In this document: in pieces, positions 4,723 to 20,710 of the stretch
How positions within the stretch are numbered: the first letter of the stretch is position 1
How the letters are laid out: every line of letters begins with the position of its first letter
UHGV virus genome: UHGV-0346409
DNA from: a virus
Length of the DNA: 44,226 nucleotides
Strand: one strand, 5' to 3'
Translations under genes and position numbers: made by a program
Notes under the pieces: model-generated
The model's input: the letters and a program-made list of their open reading frames with translations, nothing else
Database searches by the model: none
Told to the model about the DNA's origin: nothing

Positions 4723-5043
4723 TTAGTAGGGGAGCTCATCGGTATCTGGCGTGTATTCGATGCAAAGTAACTGCTGGATTTTGTCATCGATAGCAGCAAT
4801 ACGCTGTTGAGCGTCGGCGGCTGTATTCTGTTTTTGCTCACGCAGCTGCTCGACCTGCAAACCGATGATGTCGATTGGCTGGGGCTGGTTGACGGTAATT
4901 TCAATTTCGCGGCTTTCCAGAAGGATGTACCTGTCTGGAAAATTTTTTGACATATCAACCGTCGCAATAAACAGCTTTTCATGGCTGAAAGTTGAAGTTG
5001 CATAATGAATAAAGAGTGTTACTGGGATGGTGCGCGCTTCCAT
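4723..5043 (-). CDS. Hypothetical early protein (106 aa)
   Basis: ORF with AAGGAG 5 nt upstream of ATG. Confidence 0.5.
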   Translation of the reverse strand: MEARTIPVTLFIHYATSTFSHEKLFIATVDMSKNFPDRYILLESREIEITVNQPQPIDIIGLQVEQLREQKQNTAADAQQRIAAIDDKIQQLLCIEYTPDTDELPY

Positions 5044-6039
5044 AGCGACTCCTTGGTGATGTATACTCGGGACCGATCAGCGAATATTGATCAGCTTCCA
5101 TAGCGTCAGTGTCGTTGGTCTTTCCTCATCACAAGTTTGGTCACTTGTGATAAATCCGAATGGTTTGGTCGCCGTTCGGGGTAACTGGCCCGCCTTGTGC
5201 GGGTCTTTTGCTATCTAAAGGGTGCCGGTTACGTTTCCGGCGTCGTTATGTTTCCATCACGACCGTACGGGGCTGGTCTTTCCTGTTTTGAGCTGGTCAG
5301 GCTCATGGTCAACGCTGGTCAGGCGTGGTACTTCCTCCGGTCTTTCCCTGGTGTCACGCTGCGGGTTTGGCCTCTCCTGTTGGGGACTCAGGCACAGCGA
5401 TAAAACCTGGCTGTGTGAAAAAATGGCCCATCGTGCGGACTGGGCAAAGACTAAACACAGCAAATTGATGATGGGCGCCCGGAATCGAACCGGGTAACGG
5501 GCAGGGAGTTCCCGTTAAACACCTGTTCACCACAACCGGGAGCGCACTCCGCCATTTCAAAATTTAACGACAAAGCTCAAAGTTGAGTCGATGAAGTGCG
5601 CTCTCGTGTTGTAGCCAGGACTCTTCCCTGGTGGTCACACCGTATCGCCTTGATGGTGAATCAATCGCTCATACCTGGCTGTGGCTTGCACATTCCGGCT
5701 ACCTGCTATGGAGACAACGCGTTAAGGCTCCGCTTCCATCCAGACCGCTTCGACACATGTGCCATATGCCGGCGAAGTCTTTCCCTCTGTCATCGTGTTG
5801 GCGCCGACGCGCAAAATTTGATGCCGTCTTTCCGGCTGTCAGAACGTGTTTCTGAACAACTGCCGCTGGGTAAGCGTTGTTGATGAAAGTGACTTTACAA
5901 TTTGTATTTGTAATGGTCAACGTATTTTTAAAAAATAATTTGTAGTTAGGGGCAAAAAAATATTCACTGTGTAAAGGTGTTTTTGTGTTAGGGGGAAAGT
6001 TGCATGCCAGCAGCGGCTGGCCTGAAAATTTGAACTGAA

Positions 6040-6453
6040 CTATTTTGTCTGGTTTTTGGCTTCAAGTAGTTCTTTTAGCAGTAGATCGAAGTGCTCTCTT
6101 TTTTCTTTTAGCTCATTGATTAATTTATTTTTTTCGCTCTCAGGCAGTCCTCTGAATAGTTGCAGTAGAGCCTGTTCTTGCGGGGTTAGTTCTTGATTGT
6201 AATTACCCGGGTGTAGCGTGGATTCATCCAAATATTCCCCTTCATTCATGAAGAAAAAATGAACAGGGTATCCGGTCACTTTTGCTAGCTTGTCTAATTT
6301 ATCTTTTCTTGGAGTTACCCCATTACACCATGCCTGAACTGATTGAGCCGTAACCCCAATATGGCGAGCTAACTCAGATTGAGACCAGCCTAAGTCTTTT
6401 AGAATCCGTTGTAGTCGGCTAGCAAAAGCCATGTTTTTCGTTTTTGTGTTCAT
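6040..6453 (-). CDS. Phage repressor, XRE-family HTH, no S24 peptidase domain (CI-like position)
   Basis: N-terminal HTH (LGWSQSELARHIGVTAQSVQAWCNG); helical C-terminus; divergent from cro-like gene. Start ambiguous (ATG 6453 or 6432; ORF-track TTG 6468). Confidence 0.7.
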   Translation of the reverse strand: MNTKTKNMAFASRLQRILKDLGWSQSELARHIGVTAQSVQAWCNGVTPRKDKLDKLAKVTGYPVHFFFMNEGEYLDESTLHPGNYNQELTPQEQALLQLFRGLPESEKNKLINELKEKREHFDLLLKELLEAKNQTK

Positions 6454-6551
6454 ACCGTAAGGATACAAGGTTTAATTGTAGGGATCATTGCAAATATAAT
6501 TTGTAATTACAGTTATGATTTGTAATGATGGCGCGGACACAAGGAGTCCAT
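6454..6551. promoter_or_regulatory. Divergent immunity-region promoter/operator between repressor and cro-like gene
   Basis: AT-rich intergenic region with repeated TTGTAAT-type half-sites, including the palindrome TGTAATTACA at 6503-6512; position between divergent HTH genes. Confidence 0.45.
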
Positions 6552-6782
6552 ATGGATAAACAACTGCAAGACAAAATTCTTTCCGTAATGAGTCAATCCG
6601 AGTTAGGGCGGCGATTAGGGAAAAAACCACAAACGGTAAGCCTCTGGTTCAAAGGAAGGGTTCCCGGTGAAGAGGTTTTGCGCACATCTGAAGCTCTTGA
6701 ATGGCGCGTGACCCCCCATGATCTTAGACCGGATCTTTACCCAAACCCAGATGACAGCTTGCCTAAAACGAAAGCAGCTTAA
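6552..6782 (+). CDS. Cro-like HTH regulator (Cro/YdaS-type)
   Basis: 76-aa ORF with AAGGAG RBS, HTH-like segment (SQSELGRRLGKKPQTVSLWFKG), divergent from repressor. Confidence 0.65.
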   Translation: MDKQLQDKILSVMSQSELGRRLGKKPQTVSLWFKGRVPGEEVLRTSEALEWRVTPHDLRPDLYPNPDDSLPKTKAA

Positions 6783-6840
6783 CTGTTGGTGAGCCCCAAA
6801 TCTGATTAAGCGTAATCAATTTTTAGCGACAGGAGACGCT

Positions 6841-7317
6841 ATGGAAAACCAAGAGGAATTACAAAAAGAGATTTTGACCTGGGCGGCAAGGGCAGGGCAG
6901 GAACTCGTCACGATTGAAATCTGCCGGGCCTAGTTCAGTCAGGGACGCAATGATGAGTTGAGACTACATGAATTTGAGGACGCGGACGGCAATGTGGACT
7001 GGAGAGCCATCAACAACAATCGGCAGAAAATCTTTCGCTGGTTACGTGGCGAGACAACGGCGGCGCGCCGAAAAACTCAGGTGCTGGCCAGTGTGATGAA
7101 AGCCGTGCTACCCGCAGAACGGCGGGCACGTCTGGAGTCGCCGGGCGATCCCGTTTTGCTGGCAACGCTGGCGGCAAAAGAAGGGGTGGAAGCGATTAAC
7201 GCTGTACATCTCCACTTCGCGCCAGAGTTAACTATCCAGGAAATTGACGAAGCAATAGCGGCGCTGGTAGCGACGCGAGGAGCAGTGATACGCACTGCGC
7301 AAGACCACCATGCATGA
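6841..7317 (+). pseudogene. cII/YdaT-like regulatory gene interrupted by a single in-frame TAG at 6931-6933 (30-aa N-terminal ORF plus 119-aa downstream ORF in the same frame)
   Basis: One frame is open from ATG 6841 (AGGAG RBS) to 7317 except for TAG 6931; the downstream ORF has no ATG and was called from TTG 6958; RWLRGET motif and position after cro resemble YdaT/CII-like proteins (recall). Confidence 0.5.
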
Positions 7318-7356
7318 GCGCCTGACCAGCGTTTAACTTATACCGAGGAAAGACCG

Positions 7357-7581
7357 ATGTTAAGACATATTGACCGCATTACCTGGCGTAACGGCTGGCA
7401 CCTGAATGGGCGCCCGGCACATGTTGCAGAGATCCAACCTATTTTTGATGGGCGTATGGCTGCCGCGCTTTCGGTGTGGGAGCAGTATGAATCCAGGAAG
7501 GTCGAGTTGCGCGACAAAGGGCTGAGCAATGCGGACTATGAAGCCGGTTGTCGTCAGATAGCCGAAGCTCTGGAGATCTGA
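7357..7581 (+). CDS. Hypothetical protein (74 aa)
   Basis: ATG preceded by CCGAGGAAAGACC motif. Confidence 0.5.
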   Translation: MLRHIDRITWRNGWHLNGRPAHVAEIQPIFDGRMAAALSVWEQYESRKVELRDKGLSNADYEAGCRQIAEALEI

Positions 7582-7583
7582 GT

Positions 7584-8648
7584 ATGAGTCGTTTGCTGAT
7601 TAACGAAAACCCCCTTCAGGTCCTGCCCACGTTGGCATGCACTATAGGGTTGAATGAAGCCATCGTTCTACAGCAAATCCACTACTGGCTGAATTCATCT
7701 CAAAATTTCTTCGAAAATCGCCACTGGGTGTACAACAGTGTGACCGATTGGCAAGAACAATTCCCGTTCTGGAGCGAGTCGACAATAAAACGCGTGCTGG
7801 CCAATCTGGAAAAATTGAATGTGGTATTTACTGGGAACTTTAACAGTGATGCCTGGGATAAAACCAAGTGGTATTCAATCAATTATGCCCAGTTATGTAA
7901 GATTGAAGAGACAACATTCCCTGTGGCCAATCGATTAGGTCAAGTTGACCCAATCGAAGAGGTCAATGTGACCCAAGCATCAGGTCAAGTTGACCCATGC
8001 GCTAAGGTCAAAATGACCCAATCTCTTACAGAGAATACAACAGAGAGTACTACAGAGATAAAAGATCCCCCTTACCCCCAAAAGGGGGAGGGCGAGGAAA
8101 TCATTCTCGCTGACGCTCAAAAAGCTCTGAACTACTACAACGAGAAAGTCGGTACACGCTGCCGCGATGTTAAACCGTTTGTCATGCTGCTGACTGCCAC
8201 CACCACCCGCGCTGGTTACAGCGTGGCTGAGATTCAGTTAGTAATTCGTTGGGTTATTGCGACATGGCGCCGTCGTAGCGGAAGCGTGCCGAAACCTGCG
8301 AACATTTGCCGCGTAAACCGGTTTGACGGATATCTGGCTGACGCTGAGGCGTGGGCCACTGCTGAGGCTGCCGTTGACCCTGCTGAAGTTGTGAAGAGCT
8401 ACAACGAGATTCTGGGCGACCTGCTACCTATAGCTGAAATTGATACTGACCGCCGTCGGGCAATCCTGCGCCTGCTGGCACATATGCGCACGCAAACTCT
8501 TGGCGCATTTATCGGCTACTTCGAAAAATTCCGCGATAACGCCCCAGACTTCTATTTCGGCGGCGAATATCGCACCGGCTGGCGGGCAGGGTTTGATTAC
8601 CTGATGAAGCCAGAAACACTGCGTAAAACCAGGGAAGGGGCATTATGA
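7584..8648 (+). CDS. Replication initiator (lambda O-like) containing the origin iterons
   Basis: 354-aa ORF from ATG 7584 (GGAG upstream); four iterons inside the coding sequence as in lambda O/ori; coupled (ATGA) to the helicase gene. Confidence 0.65.
   Translation: MSRLLINENPLQVLPTLACTIGLNEAIVLQQIHYWLNSSQNFFENRHWVYNSVTDWQEQFPFWSESTIKRVLANLEKLNVVFTGNFNSDAWDKTKWYSINYAQLCKIEETTFPVANRLGQVDPIEEVNVTQASGQVDPCAKVKMTQSLTENTTESTTEIKDPPYPQKGEGEEIILADAQKALNYYNEKVGTRCRDVKPFVMLLTATTTRAGYSVAEIQLVIRWVIATWRRRSGSVPKPANICRVNRFDGYLADAEAWATAEAAVDPAEVVKSYNEILGDLLPIAEIDTDRRRAILRLLAHMRTQTLGAFIGYFEKFRDNAPDFYFGGEYRTGWRAGFDYLMKPETLRKTREGAL
7938..8020 (+). repeat. Origin iterons: four copies of GGTCAA-NN-TGACCCA at 7938, 7961, 7983, 8006, followed by an AT-rich stretch
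   Basis: Read directly; 22-23 bp spacing (about two helical turns). Confidence 0.75.
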
Positions 8649-10074: not shown

Positions 10075-10476
10075 ATGACCCAATTAATTAACCACACGAG
10101 TGCACACTATAGTGACGACGGTAAAAACTACCTGGATTCAATTCTGTGGCACATGAACGCAGCCGCGCGAGCACGTACCCGCTCGACATATTGCCCGCCA
10201 CCTAAAAACACTGACGTTGTGGTAATTGCAAAACCTGAGCACGTAGCAGTTATTCGCCCGGCAGAAATAACCTCAGGGACCGCCAAAACACATACCGGCG
10301 TTGTTATTAAAAATACTGGTGAGCGCACAGTAAAACTCCGCGAAACAGCGACTGCGTGGTCTGCGGGTGTAAGGGAGAACTACGATAAAAAAACAGGTTA
10401 CCGCTTAGGCGCATCAGGCAGCACCCGGTTGTTACTCGACACCGTGAAGCCCATCAGGAAGAAGGGCAAAAAATAA
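10075..10476 (+). CDS. Hypothetical protein (133 aa)
   Basis: ATG preceded by CCGAGGAAAGACCA motif. Confidence 0.5.
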   Translation: MTQLINHTSAHYSDDGKNYLDSILWHMNAAARARTRSTYCPPPKNTDVVVIAKPEHVAVIRPAEITSGTAKTHTGVVIKNTGERTVKLRETATAWSAGVRENYDKKTGYRLGASGSTRLLLDTVKPIRKKGKK

Positions 10477-10709
10477 TGACTGGCGCAGATTATCTCCCGG
10501 CTGGGTTGCCACACAACAGGGCAGCATGGCCGCAGGAGTATCAAATACTGGAACATTACGATTTGCGCGCCGCCGGGCTGATTCGCCAGTTATACGAAAA
10601 ACGAATACCACGCGGCACGGTTACAGAGGCGTTGAAAAATACTCCTGATAATTACCGGGAGTTTTTCAGGGACCGACTGAATTACTGGAGAGGGGAACGA
10701 GAAAAATGA
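10476..10709 (+). CDS. Hypothetical protein (77 aa)
   Basis: ATG overlaps upstream stop (TAATG). Confidence 0.45.
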   Translation: MTGADYLPAGLPHNRAAWPQEYQILEHYDLRAAGLIRQLYEKRIPRGTVTEALKNTPDNYREFFRDRLNYWRGEREK

Positions 10710-10930
10710 ACGAAATTTTACTCGCATTTATTCCACGATTTATTAACGACAAAGTGGCGTTGAGTGCCGTTAATGATCAATACGAAATTGTATGCAGCAT
10801 GATCGACATTATCCCCGGTGAGCAGTATGACGCGATGTGTGACCTGAAAATATTCACGTGGTTGGGGTGGGCCATTCCGTGTGGAGAGCCAACAAATATT
10901 CGCCCGTTTGAGGGCAGGGAGGCTGTATGA
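10706..10930 (+). CDS. Hypothetical protein (74 aa)
   Basis: ORF in operon context. Confidence 0.45.
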   Translation: MNEILLAFIPRFINDKVALSAVNDQYEIVCSMIDIIPGEQYDAMCDLKIFTWLGWAIPCGEPTNIRPFEGREAV

Positions 10931-11117: not shown

Positions 11118-11339
11118 ATGTTTGGCGATAACCTGGAGTTACCACGGAACGGGCGGATAGTGCTCTATATTTCAGATTACAAAGTAACCCGGGCTGAGGT
11201 GTTGGAACCGGAAAAACATTTGGTCACGTTACCGGACATTATTGAGTTGTATAAGCGGGTCGGATATGTGGACTTGCATCGCGATGATGTTCCCGTTGAG
11301 TGTATGGAATGTGAACACCGGAGGTTTGAAGTTGATTGA
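11118..11339 (+). CDS. Hypothetical protein (73 aa)
   Basis: GGAGGG RBS upstream of ATG. Confidence 0.45.
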   Translation: MFGDNLELPRNGRIVLYISDYKVTRAEVLEPEKHLVTLPDIIELYKRVGYVDLHRDDVPVECMECEHRRFEVD

Positions 11340-11431
11340 ATTGACTTAGAAAAAGCCCGGGGCTATAGTTTCCGCGCAGCCGCAAAATCGGTTGCCGGGA
11401 TTTGCACCCCGGATATCTAAAAGGCGACAAC

Positions 11432-11451
11432 GACGCGCCAGCGTCTTTTTT
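11432..11451 (+). terminator. Rho-independent terminator candidate
   Basis: GACGC-GCCA-GCGTC hairpin followed by TTTTTT. Confidence 0.5.
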
Positions 11452-11611
11452 ATTGTCGTGCGCACAGCCACATCCGCGATTTATGGTGGGGCGTGTAGGG
11501 GAGTCGAAAGGCTCGCCGGGTCCTTTTAGCCGGTAGTGCAAACCCTGCATGTCTCACCACCCAAAGATTTGCACCTGAGGGGGGTGATTATCCGACTAAA
11601 AGGAAATCGCT

Positions 11612-12406
11612 ATGACAACTCAAGTATCCGCAGCAGCCATCTCCCCGATTATCCACAACCAACTTCCCGTCCTCACCACCGAATTACTCGCGAATCTCTA
11701 TGGCACAGAGCCGGATTACATTCGTAAAAACCATAACCGGAACTCAGAGCGATTCGTGGTCGGGAAGCATTACTTTTTGCTCGAAGGTGAGGAGTTGCGC
11801 GAATTTAAGCACAGCATGTCTTTAAGACCTCCTGTGAAAATCGCCAGAAATGTCCGCTCTCTCATCCTCTGGACAGAACGCGGCGCAGCTCGCCATGCCA
11901 AAATGCTGGAAACAGAACAGGCCTGGGAAGTTTTCGAAAAGCTGGAAGATTGTTATTTTAGCCAGCGTCCAGAGAGGCGGAGTACAACCACCGATGACCG
12001 CACTCCCTTACGTGATGCCGTTAATATGCTGGTCGGTAAGAAAGGCATGATGTATCCCGATGCCTACACCATGATTCACCAACGTTTCGCCGTCTCTCAC
12101 ATAGAACAACTGTCACAGACGCAAATGTTAGAGGCGATTGAATACATCCACTGCCTGCTACTCGATGAAAATCAGCCAACCATTCCAGATTTTTCTTTTA
12201 TCACCACTATCAAAAATGGAAAAGTGACCAGGATGCGCCATGTTGCCAAAGGCGAACATCTGATGACGTTTGACGCTTTCAAAGAGATCGCTGAGCGGGC
12301 AGGGTATCTGGTGATCCACAGCGACAACCTGCGAAGTATGACGCTGGATAAATTGATGGTAATGGGGAAAAAGTCGGTTGTATCCGTTGCTGATTCAGCA
12401 TTTTGA
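11612..12406 (+). CDS. Antirepressor-like protein with ORF6N/Bro-N-type N-terminal domain
   Basis: N-terminal segment (LPVLTTELLANLYGTEPDYIRKNHNRNSERFVVGKHYFLLEGEELREFK) matches the ORF6N-type antirepressor N-domain by recall; own transcription unit after a terminator. Confidence 0.5.
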   Translation: MTTQVSAAAISPIIHNQLPVLTTELLANLYGTEPDYIRKNHNRNSERFVVGKHYFLLEGEELREFKHSMSLRPPVKIARNVRSLILWTERGAARHAKMLETEQAWEVFEKLEDCYFSQRPERRSTTTDDRTPLRDAVNMLVGKKGMMYPDAYTMIHQRFAVSHIEQLSQTQMLEAIEYIHCLLLDENQPTIPDFSFITTIKNGKVTRMRHVAKGEHLMTFDAFKEIAERAGYLVIHSDNLRSMTLDKLMVMGKKSVVSVADSAF

Positions 12407-15201: not shown

Positions 15202-15521
15202 AGTGTTACATTTTAACTATACAATTATTGATTCACTAATGAAGAGGTGATTTAGACGTATGAAGTTTTAATAAGCTCCAAGAATATTTTGTCATACATG
15301 GGTTAAAGAGTTATATAATAATATCTGCTTCTGGAACACAGCAGACAAGCACCTGCAGATAAAGGTCTGCTGAGAGCGAGAAGCGGATCATACGTTGGAA
15401 GTTGTTTAGGCAAATACGTTATAAACGTATTTGATTAAATTTACTTGGATCATAGTCTTCAATAACGCTTTATTATATTGTTTTTCATGCAGCAAACAGG
15501 TTCACAGGTAGGTAATAAGCT

Positions 15522-16035: not shown

Positions 16036-16641
16036 TTACTTGCGTTTAAAAAGGTATTTTGTCACGACCAGCACGAGGCCGAATACCTCTGTCAAAGTAC
16101 CGCCCATGTACAACTGTAGTGTTAAATCCTCAAATTCCAGCTTACCTGCGCCGTCGGCAATAAATACACCATTCATTATCAGAAGTTGGCAAGCAAGGAT
16201 AATCAGGAACCATTTCCCGTATCGTTTTTTTAGAGCGATTTCTGCTTCAAAATCTTTGTTGTTGAGTTGTTTGCGCTCATGCTCGGTATCAAGTGAATTC
16301 ACCTGTTTCACAGATGTGAACTCGGTCAAGATTTTACTCTCAGTACGGGTGACTTGTTGAGAGGGTGTAACAGTTGGAATTCTTTTGCTAGACGCAGCTA
16401 CAGCCATTTTGCGAGCTTCGGCAGCTCTTTTTCTGGCTATTCCGCGAATACGGACAGCCGTTTTTTTGGGGGCGTGCGAAACCTTTGGCTGAGGTGAAGT
16501 TTCGTCAGGAGACTGAACCGGGGTTTCATCGTCCCCCGGCTCAACCTCTTCTGCTAACTGACGGTGTAGGTTGAGGGAATCCTTCAGTCGGCGTGCAACT
16601 TCCTGTTTGAAACGGCTGTTAAAATCGTCATCCGATGGCAT
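16036..16641 (-). CDS. Membrane protein: charged, low-complexity N-terminal region and two C-terminal transmembrane helices
   Basis: Hydrophobic segments WFLIILACQLLIMNGVFI and LTEVFGLVLVV near the C-terminus; start 9 nt after the ImmA-like stop (operon). Confidence 0.6.
   Translation of the reverse strand: MPSDDDFNSRFKQEVARRLKDSLNLHRQLAEEVEPGDDETPVQSPDETSPQPKVSHAPKKTAVRIRGIARKRAAEARKMAVAASSKRIPTVTPSQQVTRTESKILTEFTSVKQVNSLDTEHERKQLNNKDFEAEIALKKRYGKWFLIILACQLLIMNGVFIADGAGKLEFEDLTLQLYMGGTLTEVFGLVLVVTKYLFKRK
16042..16117. repeat. Right copy of ~75-bp imperfect direct repeat, lying within the 3' end of the membrane-protein gene
   Basis: Aligns with 12441-12515 (about 93% identity). Confidence 0.7.
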
Positions 16642-16650
16642 TCTAAAGCG

Positions 16651-17139
16651 TTACCCCAACCTCAAGTTCTTTAAACGATAAGTCATCGCATCGTCAGATA
16701 CGCCAAAATAATGCGCCATTATATAACTTGGTTGGCCGTCAGCGTGCAGTTTTCTGACCTCATCAACCGGCATCAGAAGTTCTGCTGCGAACTTGTTCGC
16801 AAAAATTTCATCAGGATGCGTTCCGGCGCTTGCGGTTTCGCCACGTAAATCAACGTACTCATATTCATCACTATGCGATGCTTGCCGGGCGATGTAATGC
16901 CCCAACTCATGCCCACATGAAAAACGTTGACGAACTTTGTTGTCATCACTGTTTAGAAAGATCGCTGGATCTTGATCTTTTTGTTTAATCAGTGCGCCAG
17001 AAACTTTCCCAGGAAGATCGGTAATAAAAACATCTAATCCCATGTCGTGAGCAATTTTCGCTGGATCAACAGGGAAACCACGCCCGCACCAGAACGTGTC
17101 CAGCACTCGCCGGGCGTGCTCTCTTGGGTTGGTAGCCAT
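16651..17139 (-). CDS. ImmA/IrrE-family zinc metallopeptidase (COG2856/DUF955-like)
   Basis: HExxH motif (CGHELGHY) and downstream E..ANKFAAELLMP segment typical of ImmA/IrrE peptidases (recall); GGAGG RBS. Confidence 0.75.
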   Translation of the reverse strand: MATNPREHARRVLDTFWCGRGFPVDPAKIAHDMGLDVFITDLPGKVSGALIKQKDQDPAIFLNSDDNKVRQRFSCGHELGHYIARQASHSDEYEYVDLRGETASAGTHPDEIFANKFAAELLMPVDEVRKLHADGQPSYIMAHYFGVSDDAMTYRLKNLRLG

Positions 17140-17466: not shown

Positions 17467-17486
17467 ATCTGTAAAAAAATACAGAT
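17467..17486. promoter_or_regulatory. LexA (SOS) box candidate: ATCTGT-AAAAAAAT-ACAGAT
   Basis: Exact CTGT-N8-ACAG with AT-rich spacer, in the intergenic region between the ImmA-like gene and a plus-strand small ORF. Confidence 0.5.
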
Positions 17487-17706: not shown

Positions 17707-17985
17707 ATGAAACACATCTGTAAAAAGTCACATCGTCACGACAGTATGTTTGATGTTCTTTCTGCAAATCAGGGTAACGTTGGGCGGCACAAGTGTTGTG
17801 GATGTGCCTATGATAAAGGTATGTGGCATGCATTAATCGGCGTTCCGCGTGCGGTTGATGACTCTGTTTTAGGTGATTTACCCGAAAGCCAGGCTGGGCA
17901 TGTCCGTCATAAAGATGCTTTTGAAGCATATAATATGGGCTATGACCATGGGATGCATAAAAAAGCCTACGGTATGGCCTCATAA
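17707..17985 (+). CDS. Small basic His/Cys-rich protein (92 aa)
   Basis: ORF followed 20 nt downstream by a strong terminator; about 220 nt downstream of the LexA box; weak RBS. Confidence 0.4.
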   Translation: MKHICKKSHRHDSMFDVLSANQGNVGRHKCCGCAYDKGMWHALIGVPRAVDDSVLGDLPESQAGHVRHKDAFEAYNMGYDHGMHKKAYGMAS

Positions 17986-18838: not shown

Positions 18839-18876
18839 ATGACAAATGCCATAAAATACTGTATAAATGTACAGGT
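18839..18876 (+). promoter_or_regulatory. SOS-type promoter: -35 ATGACA, 17-nt spacer, -10 TATAAA, overlapped by LexA box TACTGT-ATAAATGT-ACAGGT (18857-18876)
   Basis: Read directly; box is close to the TACTGTATATATATACAGTA consensus and overlaps the -10; 21 nt upstream of an ATG with GGGGGAAG RBS. Confidence 0.6.
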
Positions 18877-18896: not shown

Positions 18897-19076
18897 ATGA
18901 ATATTCAAGAATCTATAGGCGAACTACCGGAAACATGCCGGGCTGTTATCAAGCGTAAGGACGGACACATCGTTGGTGTGCGTGTTCTGACCGATGATGA
19001 ACGGATTGCCAGCCTGATGGCGTTTCTCGAGTTGGCAGAAATAGCTGGATATACTATTACACCCCCTGATGCGTAA
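18897..19076 (+). CDS. Small SOS-regulated protein (59 aa), candidate antirepressor; below the ORF-track length cutoff
   Basis: ATG with strong RBS immediately downstream of the LexA-overlapped promoter. Confidence 0.5.
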   Translation: MNIQESIGELPETCRAVIKRKDGHIVGVRVLTDDERIASLMAFLELAEIAGYTITPPDA

Positions 19077-19152
19077 AACACGGTATAATGTCGGTGCTGG
19101 ATTGAACACCCAGCACCACTTCTGAACACTGCCGCGCCACCTGGAGTTAACC

Positions 19153-19749
19153 ATGGCGCAGCATTCATTTATCAGGGTATCCGGCGGTTCGCTAATACCC
19201 GCGACACCAGACACGCAACGCTGGTTGACTGAACGAGTCAAACCAGGTGCTGTTGTGTATGCAGATTTCAAACAGGCGCGTAATCCCGCGTTTCATCGTA
19301 AATTTTTCTCACTTCTCAACCTGGGCTTTGATTACTGGCATCCCTCCGGAGGGGCTATTTCTCCTGCGGAGCGCGAACTGGTTCACGGATACGTTAAGTT
19401 ACTGGCGTATTACGGTGGGCATGGTGATGTCATGGCTGAGCTGGCTGATCAGTATCTTCTCGATGAGTCGGAAAAGCGCGCGGGGAATATCAGTGCGGTG
19501 AAGTCGTTCGAGGCGTTTCGCGCCTGGGCGACTATGGAATCTGGATTTTATGACGTTCATCAGATGCCAGATGGTAGTTTGATGCGTGTACCTCGTTCAA
19601 TCTCGTTTGCTGCGATGGACGATCTTGAGTTCGGTCAACTGTATTCAGCCGTTTTAGATGTGCTGTGGAATTATATTTTGTTCCGCACGTTTGCCTCTCA
19701 GGAGGCCGCTGAAAATGCTGCCGCGCAGCTGTTGGATTACACATCATGA
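19153..19749 (+). CDS. Hypothetical Nin-region protein (198 aa)
   Basis: ORF with GGAG RBS, upstream of the Q-like gene. Confidence 0.5.
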   Translation: MAQHSFIRVSGGSLIPATPDTQRWLTERVKPGAVVYADFKQARNPAFHRKFFSLLNLGFDYWHPSGGAISPAERELVHGYVKLLAYYGGHGDVMAELADQYLLDESEKRAGNISAVKSFEAFRAWATMESGFYDVHQMPDGSLMRVPRSISFAAMDDLEFGQLYSAVLDVLWNYILFRTFASQEAAENAAAQLLDYTS

Positions 19750-20039
19750 AAAAAATCGACCTGAGAAAAGCTGCACGTGGTCGCGCTTGTACTGTGCGTA
19801 TCCCCGGTGTGTGCAATCACAATCCTGAAACCAGCGTACTGGCTCATTATCGTCTCGCCGGAATGTGCGGCACAGCCATCAAACCTCACGATATGCAGGG
19901 CGCTATCGCCTGCAGTGCGTGTCACGATGCCATCGACGGACGTACAAAAACGGATTACGAGCACGACTCATTGTTGTTGATGCACGCTGAGGGAGTTTTC
20001 AGAACACTGGCTATCTGGCGCGATGAGGAGTTTATCTGA
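19746..20039 (+). CDS. Cys-rich Nin-region protein (97 aa), possibly DUF1364/YbcO-like
   Basis: Multiple Cys/His (C..C, H..C); coupled to neighbours by ATGA overlaps; family by recall only. Confidence 0.4.
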   Translation: MKKIDLRKAARGRACTVRIPGVCNHNPETSVLAHYRLAGMCGTAIKPHDMQGAIACSACHDAIDGRTKTDYEHDSLLLMHAEGVFRTLAIWRDEEFI

Positions 20040-20710
20040 TGAGTAACGAGTATTTATTGGAATATACCCGCATAAAACTGCGCGCTGCATTACGGGATTT
20101 GTCTGGTGGTTCTAAGGGGCAACTGGAAGCATTGTGTGAGCACCCGCCAGCAGATAAAAACGCATACCCACGCAAACATATTCATCGTGTGCAACTGGAG
20201 GACCGGACCGTTGATGCTCTGGTTACGCCAGTTTATGCCCTGGAAAGTTTCAGCAGACGTCGTCCCGCGCCGCCGATGAATGATTATGAATTCGCTGATT
20301 CATCGTGGCGCCGCGCCGTGAATTCGCTCGACGTTAGCCAGCAGGCGTGGTTGCGCTATTGCTACGGTGGTCACCTGGCGTTCAAACACCAAACAGCTAT
20401 TTGTGAGGCTGTCTGGAGTCGCTATAAAGGACACATCCCCGCGTCAACTCAGAGAAAAGTAGCTAAGCGTCTGCTTTCGTTGGTGTGGTTGTCCGTGCAG
20501 GCGGTTGCAGCAGCAAATAAACGCGAGGATTTTAAGGAGATGGCTGGATCTGCGCTAGCTGGAATGTTGTCTGTTTCTCGTTCCACCTGGTGCGAAACAT
20601 ACTCCCCGCACTGGGTAGGAATGAAAGAGGCGGTGAGAGCACTTGATGAAATGGCACTTCTTGCAACTTTGCATCATTATCAAAACCATTTAGACGACGT
20701 TTGCGTATAA
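20039..20710 (+). CDS. Late-gene antiterminator, Q-like
   Basis: 223-aa ORF immediately upstream of a promoter-like TATAAT, a short-transcript terminator and the lysis cassette; family by recall and position. Confidence 0.55.
   Translation: MSNEYLLEYTRIKLRAALRDLSGGSKGQLEALCEHPPADKNAYPRKHIHRVQLEDRTVDALVTPVYALESFSRRRPAPPMNDYEFADSSWRRAVNSLDVSQQAWLRYCYGGHLAFKHQTAICEAVWSRYKGHIPASTQRKVAKRLLSLVWLSVQAVAAANKREDFKEMAGSALAGMLSVSRSTWCETYSPHWVGMKEAVRALDEMALLATLHHYQNHLDDVCV

Follow-up and report, generated by a model that had tools for sequence, protein, structure and literature searches.

Experiments on the Gifsy prophages showed that the repressors GtgR, GfoR and GfhR remain uncleaved, their inactivation being the work of small LexA-controlled antirepressors encoded outside the immunity region (PMC3121763). 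In the same study, Lemire et al. 2011 listed DicA and RacR among the homologues of Gifsy-type repressors, and predicted repressors of this type in most Escherichia coli genomes (PMC3121763). DicA, from the Qin prophage, was subsequently found to have its repression relieved by Rem (Ragunathan et al. 2023, PMC10448788). Here we examine the CI-position repressor gene of the virus genome UHGV-0346409, a stretch of 44,226 nucleotides (nt) referred to in full as the window, together with the genes of the same prophage that might act on its product. Our analyses indicate that this repressor of 137 amino acids (aa) belongs to the same family and point to a 59-aa protein of the Rem/GfoA family, encoded behind a LexA box, as its probable antirepressor. 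The strategy is a known one, of which the window offers a clear example and no new principle.

The first-pass annotation of this DNA had described a repressor of about 137 aa with an N-terminal helix-turn-helix (HTH), a helical C-terminus and no S24-type autocleavage module, a description with which our gene, domain and structure predictions agree. The repressor open reading frame (ORF) spans positions 6040 to 6468 of the minus strand, and an ATG at 6453 gives a protein of 137 aa. The NCBI Prokaryotic Genome Annotation Pipeline (PGAP) call for the same gene in the prophage of E. coli O43 RM10042 starts at the ATG at 6432 and gives 130 aa. The 137-aa start is more likely, because homologues from Salmonella, Klebsiella and Gifsy prophages keep the N-terminal extension and lack the internal methionine. 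The range originally assigned to the repressor, 6040-6551, is thus coding as far as 6453 only, the remainder (6454-6551) being noncoding DNA of the divergent promoter/operator region. The further positions cited in that annotation (11612-12406, 16651-17139 and 18897) correspond to genuine ORFs with the similarities described there.

A Pfam scan of the repressor gave only HTH matches, namely HTH_3 (E 1.7e-12 over aa 14-65) and models related to it, and none to Peptidase_S24. This negative result is meaningful because the CI protein of a Shiga toxin (Stx) phage (229 aa), with an HTH 53% identical to that of the repressor, gave a Peptidase_S24 match of 3.5e-17 when scanned in the same way. DicA, GtgR and the repressors of the E24377A and Klebsiella prophages displayed an HTH only. 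Searches by tblastn with the Stx-phage CI and LexA found no S24-coding remnant anywhere in the window, including the DNA downstream of the repressor. The AlphaFold2 model (predicted local distance difference test, pLDDT, 79.8) comprises five helices at residues 3-68, disorder at 75-86 and two further helices at 91-101 and 105-135, with no beta-rich domain; a fold search with this model retrieved generic HTH_3 domains only, DdrO and the N-terminal domain of CapH being among the weak matches. All eight database homologues are HTH-only proteins of 81-146 aa, the shortest corresponding to truncated gene calls and the full-length ones to 130-146 aa. The repressor is without an autocleavage module and therefore needs a trans-acting inducer. 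A missing domain match is in itself no proof that a domain is absent, but no positive evidence speaks for hidden cleavage. It is exceedingly improbable that RecA-dependent cleavage persists through a module that no current model recognises, given that the C-terminal 50 residues are predicted to form two helices as opposed to the beta-rich S24 fold, that direct reading of the sequence reveals no Ala-Gly or Cys-Gly dipeptide at which cleavage could occur, and that the homologues GtgR, GfoR and GfhR are not cleaved (PMC3121763).

Sequence comparison assigns the repressor, over its full length, to the non-cleavable DicA/GtgR/GfoR family. It shares 33% identity with GogR/GtgR of Gifsy-1/-2 from strain LT2 (aa 10-137, E 6e-23), 32% with DicA of Qin (aa 5-136, E 1e-17) and 33% with the repressor of the E24377A prophage, and its best NCBIfam match is the model ‘transcriptional repressor DicA’ (72.6 bits, aa 6-136), at a score below the 101-bit equivalog cut-off. 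Alignments of the window, GogR/GtgR, DicA and E24377A repressors revealed a common C-terminal motif, LLxLFxxLPExE. Relative to the window repressor, identity is also higher in the C-terminal domain than in the HTH, both for E24377A (44% versus 29%) and for DicA (40% versus 29%), a pattern that fits docking of an antirepressor on the conserved C-terminal hairpin, should such docking occur.

Two of the candidates named in the first-pass annotation, an ‘SOS-promoter ORF’ at 18897 and an antirepressor-like gene at 11612-12406, gained support from our searches, the stronger case being that of the former. A LexA box (TACTGTATAAATGTACAGGT) lies upstream of this 59-aa ORF, its core CTGT-N8-ACAG at 18859-18874 overlapping the -10 element of a predicted promoter and ending 23 nt before the ATG; two sites matching this core occur in the window, where 0.41 are expected by chance. 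The 59-aa protein matches phrog_340 at 1.6e-20, as does Rem at 4.4e-21, and has no match in Pfam or NCBIfam. A full-library HMMER search delineated a family whose members are mostly 55-66 aa long and bear the signature LPxxGRvvI..nG.v.s.rvL..dEhiAtL.aF.ElAe.AGYtI.pP; the family profile aligns by hhalign with Rem (92.5% probability, E 4.9e-7) and with gp59 of the Gifsy-like phage SPN3UB (93.6%, E 2e-7), an ORF situated between dinI and a DUF1367/NinB-annotated gene. An independent hidden Markov model (HMM), built without any window sequence and searched against 3461 stop-to-stop reading-frame segments, also detected the 59-aa ORF (2e-25), a Klebsiella 63-aa ORF (4e-26), SPN3UB gp59 (3.6e-7) and Rem (1.2e-5). 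Furthermore, the last 13 residues of GfoA, RRLGYRVTPPSDI, as read from a tagging primer (Lemire Table S1), share a GY-x-(I/V)-TPP signature with the 59-aa ORF, which ends in AGYTITPPDA. Its predicted fold (pLDDT 80.5) combines a short and a long helix with a beta-hairpin between them.

The order of genes at this locus, LexA box, 59-aa ORF, DUF1367, DUF1364 and Q, is that of Gifsy with dinI removed. The DUF1367 protein is 57% identical to STM2620 of Gifsy-1, which, from its place after dinI and gftA, we regard as homologous to the irsA gene of Lemire et al. A narrow alignment of the 59-aa family recovered one genome locus, in E. whittamii, and a distant family member, P0017, was absent from the viral contigs searched. 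The interval between the 59-aa ORF and DUF1367 (19084-19117, plus strand) contains a perfect TATAAT at 19084-19089 and a hairpin, GGTGCTGG-N9-CCAGCACC, at 19093-19117 with no T-run after it; together these may act on the genes that lead to Q, either as an internal promoter or as an attenuator.

Comparison across relatives revealed that a LexA box is present just upstream of every family member that precedes DUF1367 and for which upstream DNA was available, with the exception of ETEC1738. The box is kept at E. coli alleles of the small ORF ranging from 75 to 100% identity, some with the perfect core CTGTATATATATACAG, in a Salmonella prophage with a repressor 87% identical, and in Klebsiella prophages with 66% identity in the repressor, 40% in the small ORF and, on visual inspection, seemingly unrelated flanking DNA. 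The other candidates are not retained throughout: both the ImmA-like gene and a full ORF6N gene are missing from the Klebsiella relatives; the E24377A prophage encodes an identical 59-aa protein and an ORF6N protein 98% identical, but no ImmA gene, and its repressor is only 33% identical; and ETEC1738, with identical repressor and Cro proteins and a small ORF variant 76% identical, possesses neither ORF6N nor ImmA. The small ORF is hence the sole candidate kept in every examined relative whose SOS-module region was visible, and we regard it as the best inducer candidate among the modules of the window.

These comparisons also bear on the ImmA/IrrE-family peptidase encoded at 16651, which had been proposed as a further inducer and could be imagined to cleave the repressor as ImmA cleaves ImmR, IrrE cleaves DdrO and CapP cleaves CapH. 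The protein matches Peptidase_M78 (7.7e-18) with an intact HELGH motif, and its best match in a defence library was CapP (2.4e-25), the peptidase domain of RmrA being also among the best matches. Short HTH_3 repressors with helical C-termini are, moreover, typical substrates of M78-family proteases. The gene nonetheless lies 10.2 kb from the repressor, on the opposite strand and within a variable island of 41% GC content; no HTH partner gene was found next to or upstream of it; and peptidase and repressor are not inherited together, as seen in ETEC1738, Klebsiella and E24377A, the peptidase gene being missing also from several viral contigs in which the SOS module persists. Its partner is a gene for a 201-aa membrane protein with a hydrophobic C-terminus, in what looks like a separate two-gene cargo unit (16036-17139, minus strand) that may be a module of defence or toxin-antitoxin type outside the lysis-lysogeny switch. 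We therefore consider cleavage by this peptidase very improbable, and of the earlier suggestion that induction is mediated by an antirepressor or a protease we retain the antirepressor, for which the DicA/GtgR family provides precedent. The second CTGT-N8-ACAG site of the window (17469-17484) lies 238 nt upstream of a gene for a 92-aa Cys/His-rich protein (17707-17985, plus strand; phrog_3941) that is followed by a clean terminator. This site occurs only in loci carrying the 92-aa gene and is not tied to ImmA, and the gene may be an SOS-inducible cargo gene.

Several observations weigh against the 59-aa protein as the inducer. The LexA box of ETEC1738, upstream of position 15379 of locus L029, reads CTGTATATATACAG, with a spacer of 6 nt after a 2-nt loss in a TA run. 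In E24377A the identical 59-aa protein occurs with a repressor of only 33% identity, such that the pairing is not allele-specific; the small ORF is not tied to one repressor allele and therefore, if active at all, needs a broad specificity, a property with precedent in GfoA, which acts on both GfoR and GfhR (PMC3121763). The partner of the closest phage repressor, that of Klebsiella phi5.1 at 42% identity, is a GftA-type protein, and we found no similarity of GftA to the 59-aa ORF or its family by BLASTP, hhalign (2-3% probability), phrog_340 (E 0.23) or the HMM (E 3.9). The operon has no dinI ORF at its head, unlike Gifsy, the ATG of the 59-aa ORF following the box within 23 nt. No solved structure resembles the 59-aa protein, either by sequence or by fold (best E 1.5). 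Finally, the Rem/DicA pair of Qin does not respond to mitomycin C (PMC10448788). Weighing these points against the evidence from family membership, gene order and conservation, we put the probability that this prophage uses Gifsy-type induction, with a LexA-controlled 59-aa Rem/GfoA protein removing an uncleavable repressor, at roughly 70%.

Two side observations concern the proteins and prophages just mentioned. By eye, GftA might be taken for a remote member of phrog_340; we rejected this as unproven, since hhalign combined its low probability with registers that did not agree and the HMMs gave E-values of 0.23 and 3.9 only. The ETEC1738 prophage is decayed, with an IS3 insertion and broken terminase genes.

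The window encodes two further proteins with Rem-like sequences. The early-right operon ends in a 73-aa ORF that was detected both by phrog_340 (3.6e-21) and by the independent HMM (4e-10); it is unannotated in RM10042 and annotated in E24377A. By analogy with FsoA it would be a candidate antirepressor under repressor control, made only after derepression. The second is the antirepressor-like protein of 11612-12406, which carries an ORF6N domain (1.2e-18) and, at aa 199-240, a Rem-like C-terminal domain (phrog_340, 3e-12; independent HMM, 3.9e-10; the 59-aa ORF directly, E 9e-6). Its N-terminal 118 aa are 67% identical to STM2616 of Gifsy-1 (LT2), which we take to be the counterpart of SL2578/AnrP of strain SL1344, since each is encoded downstream of Q. 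Immediately 5' of the ORF6N gene, on the same strand and behind a near-consensus promoter, Rfam models identified isrK (76.2 bits; gathering score 50) and a C4 RNA (73.6 bits; gathering score 45). In Gifsy-1, IsrK activates translation of anrP, and over-expression of AnrP induces the prophage (PMC4825925). The ORF6N protein is by analogy a credible second antirepressor, independent of SOS. The earlier proposal that the prophage carries several alternative induction devices consequently stands in part: two of its three named candidates are retained, the ImmA-like peptidase is set aside, and the Rem-like gene at 11118-11339 had been missed.

These features raise the alternative that the ORF6N/AnrP-type protein, gated by isrK and C4, is the main inducer by a largely SOS-independent route, with the 59-aa ORF being accessory or directed at other prophages. 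In addition to the RNA genes and the AnrP precedent, this alternative draws on the phrog_340 match of the C-terminal domain and the 98% conservation of the protein in E24377A. However, the gene is missing from the Klebsiella relatives and from ETEC1738, the repressor of which is identical, no LexA box lies nearby, and the SOS route of Gifsy-1 runs through GfoA and not AnrP (PMC3121763). We consider it unlikely, although the SOS and RNA-gated routes are not mutually exclusive. The C-terminus of STM2616 is only marginal as a Rem-like domain (hhalign E 6.6e-4, 27% probability; HMM E 0.29) and stays a lead. By megablast, 16 genomes had a match to ORF6N that counted as ‘full-length’; since E24377A encodes a protein 98% identical, this number reflects fragmented matches and was set aside.

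It might also be supposed that the prophage has no dedicated inducer, with a stochastic or Cro-type feedback switch operating as in Qin DicA/DicC and the LexA-controlled operon serving DUF1367 and Q only. The Qin dicB promoter indeed turns on spontaneously, independent of RecA and Rem (PMC10448788), and an amber codon in the cII-position ydaT-like gene hints at some decay: codon 6931-6933 is TAG in the window in place of TGG (Trp31), the residue being Trp in RM10042, E24377A and ETEC1738. Against this, the annotation of the RM10042 prophage shows complete gene sets for replication, lysis, head and tail, and joint conservation of the LexA box and the Rem-family ORF in different genera speaks for selection to keep that protein under SOS control. 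A switch without an inducer is thus quite improbable.

Under Gifsy-type induction by the 59-aa protein, the regulatory circuit would operate as follows. In the lysogen, the repressor, probably a dimer formed through its C-terminal helical hairpin and incapable of self-cleavage, would bind its candidate operators, both those at 6488-6525 by the divergent promoters and that at 5895-5913 by the leftward promoter, while LexA would occupy the box over the -10 element of the SOS promoter, 12.4 kb away. Following DNA damage, active RecA would prompt self-cleavage of LexA and allow this promoter to fire, expressing the 59-aa protein and probably also DUF1367, DUF1364 and Q. We infer that the 59-aa protein then physically binds the repressor, with its docking site on the C-terminal domain, and takes it off the DNA, such that the early operons open and induction ensues. 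The other two copies of the domain probably add inputs: the 73-aa ORF, lying in the early-right operon, would reinforce derepression by positive feedback or else target other prophages in trans, and the ORF6N/AnrP-type protein, gated by the isrK and C4 RNAs, would provide an SOS-independent input.

The assignment of operators derives from palindromes in the sequence (Table 1). The third operator-like site overlaps a leftward promoter with a -35 of TTGACC (5921-5916), a spacer of 17 nt and a -10 of TAAAGT (5897-5892), and the same operator-like layout is found in relatives.

Table 1. Coordinates of the features of the window that are discussed in the text.
Feature	Position	Strand	Description
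CI-position prophage repressor	6040..6453	-	137 aa: HTH_3, disordered linker, C-terminal helical hairpin; DicA/GtgR family; no S24
Two abutting 19-bp operator-like palindromes, TTGCAAATATAATTTGTAA and TTACAGTTATGATTTGTAA	6488-6506, 6507-6525		Repressor/cro intergenic; candidate rightward operator (OR), putative role
Third operator-like site, TTACAATTTGTATTTGTAA	5895..5913		One mismatch to half-site consensus; candidate leftward operator/promoter (OL/PL), putative role
Cro-position gene, divergent from repressor	6552..6782	+	76 aa; matches YdaS_toxin, HTH_3
YdaT-family gene, cII position	6841..7317	+	Interrupted in this copy by a TAG codon at 6931-6933
73-aa Rem-like (phrog_340) ORF	11118..11339	+	Strong Shine-Dalgarno; last gene of early-right operon
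Promoter followed by RNAs	11341..11564	+	TTGACT 11341-11346, 17 nt, TATAGT 11364-11369; isrK 11376-11451; C4-type antisense RNA 11479-11564
ORF6N/AnrP-type Ant protein	11612..12406	+	264 aa; Rem-like C-terminal domain aa 199-240
ImmA/IrrE-family metallopeptidase	16651..17139	-	Peptidase_M78 7.7e-18; HELGH aa 77-81; judged outside induction circuit
SOS promoter	18839..18874	+	-35 ATGACA 18839-18844, 17-nt spacer, -10 TATAAA 18862-18867; overlapping LexA box TACTGTATAAATGTACAGGT
59-aa small protein, Rem/GfoA family (phrog_340)	18897..19076	+	Proposed LexA-controlled antirepressor
DUF1367 gene, DUF1364 gene, Q antiterminator	19153..20710	+	Probably co-transcribed with 59-aa ORF

The window corresponds to an E. 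coli prophage, the immunity region of which is 99.8% identical to that of the RM10042 prophage; among 5426 complete E. coli genomes, 480 carry this region at an identity of at least 95%. A megablast search of the immunity region against phage genomes gave no match. In the RM10042 annotation an integrase lies next to mtfA and a tRNA-Ser gene; the early region is lambdoid, the head lambda-like and the contractile tail P2-like. Two of the four differences between the window and RM10042 within 5000-8000 fall in regulatory DNA, at base 5892, the final base of the leftward -10 (TAAAGT in the window, TAAAGC in RM10042), and at base 6485, which flanks the first OR palindrome. A gene for a 157-aa protein directly 3' of the repressor is conserved in the Salmonella and Klebsiella relatives (e.g. 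10431-10904 of locus L020); it has no Pfam match, and is absent from the window with no remnant detectable by tblastn.

Transcription from the leftward promoter would traverse approximately 850 nt (5044-5890) that contain no credible ORF and are 77-84% identical to the matching region of the Salmonella and Klebsiella relatives. The motif GGAAAGAC occurs nine times in the window, compared with 1.24 expected, a count reached in 0 of 100 shuffles; five of the nine sit in this region and all nine are oriented with transcription. No Rfam match was obtained for the region, which may represent a structured leader or antitermination RNA. Stx phages with an S24-type CI likewise have a phrog_340 gene in the early-left operon, as seen in the Stx2a phage Stx2_EH2246 (5514-5696 and 6942-7631), which suggests, by analogy with FsoA of Fels-1, that Stx phages could induce co-resident prophages with DicA-type repressors.

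The presence of three Rem-like copies in one genome under three controls, one of them fused to ORF6N, suggests that the Rem/GfoA domain is a portable repressor-binding module. That the three copies converge on the C-terminal hairpin of DicA-type repressors is a tentative proposal, to which we give somewhat less than even odds. If true, the prophage would possess a multi-input induction circuit with built-in positive feedback, heteroimmune prophages might induce each other, as identical 59-aa proteins accompany repressors of 33% identity, and small (GfoA, Rem, FsoA-like) and large (AnrP/Ant) antirepressors would represent one mechanism at the level of domains.

Cognate antirepressors of Gifsy-type repressors have been identified in E. 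coli in only a few cases, one of which, Rem, belongs to a decayed prophage that is no longer SOS-responsive. The window, by comparison, represents an apparently intact E. coli prophage in which names can be put to the repressor, to its candidate operators and to a Rem-family antirepressor that still lies behind a LexA box. Neither Pfam nor NCBIfam has a model for the Rem/GfoA family, which PHROGs label ‘unknown function’; naming it would improve both the annotation of prophages and the prediction of their inducibility, the latter being relevant where SOS-triggering antibiotics mobilise prophages.

Among described systems, the closest likeness is to Gifsy-1, -2 and -3, with their pairs of GfoR, GtgR and GfhR with GfoA, GftA and GfhA (PMC3121763). 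Common to both are a short HTH-only repressor with full-length homology (33% to GtgR), an antirepressor gene placed outside the immunity region behind a LexA box and directly upstream of an irsA-position DUF1367 gene and Q, and a small protein that is of GfoA type by its C-terminal signature and its match to SPN3UB gp59. Unlike Gifsy, the window operon lacks dinI and its small protein does not detectably resemble GftA, with which GtgR is paired; E. coli is the host, a lambda-like head is combined with a P2-like contractile tail, and two further copies of the antirepressor domain are present in the same prophage. The DicA/Rem pair of Qin (PMC10448788) is similar in its repressor, 32% identical over aa 5-136 with LLxLFxxLPESE in common, and in that Rem and the 59-aa ORF both belong to phrog_340. 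Rem is, however, longer (83 aa, with an extra N-terminal hairpin), and Qin has no LexA box within 12 kb of rem and no mitomycin C response, whereas in the window the box is intact and the prophage looks complete.

The remaining likenesses concern the additional modules. As in isrK-orf45-anrP of Gifsy-1 (Hershko-Shalev et al. 2016, PMC4825925) and immI (c4-icd-ant) of P1/P7, RNAs of the isrK/C4 type directly precede an ORF6N Ant gene, and the N-terminal domain is 67% identical to that of STM2616, taken as the AnrP counterpart. The window protein is longer than this counterpart (264 versus 187 aa), its Rem-like C-terminus is clear (3e-12) where that of STM2616 is marginal, and its module lies before the cargo island and not after Q. 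FsoA of Fels-1, encoded in the early-left operon under control of its own repressor (PMC3121763), resembles the 73-aa ORF in being located inside an early operon and made only after derepression, although the 73-aa ORF is part of a rightward operon and FsoA could be compared by its first and last residues only, as given by primer sequences. The ImmR/ImmA (ICEBs1), DdrO/IrrE and CapH/CapP systems likewise unite a short HTH_3 repressor and a Peptidase_M78 gene in one element; in the window these genes are neither adjacent nor co-inherited, and the peptidase resides without an HTH partner in a cargo island. Taken together, homology, gene order and conservation of the LexA box make the proposed pairing of a DicA-family repressor with a Rem/GfoA antirepressor still under LexA control well supported at the level of sequence, and the finding refines a mechanism known from Gifsy and Qin rather than adding a new one.

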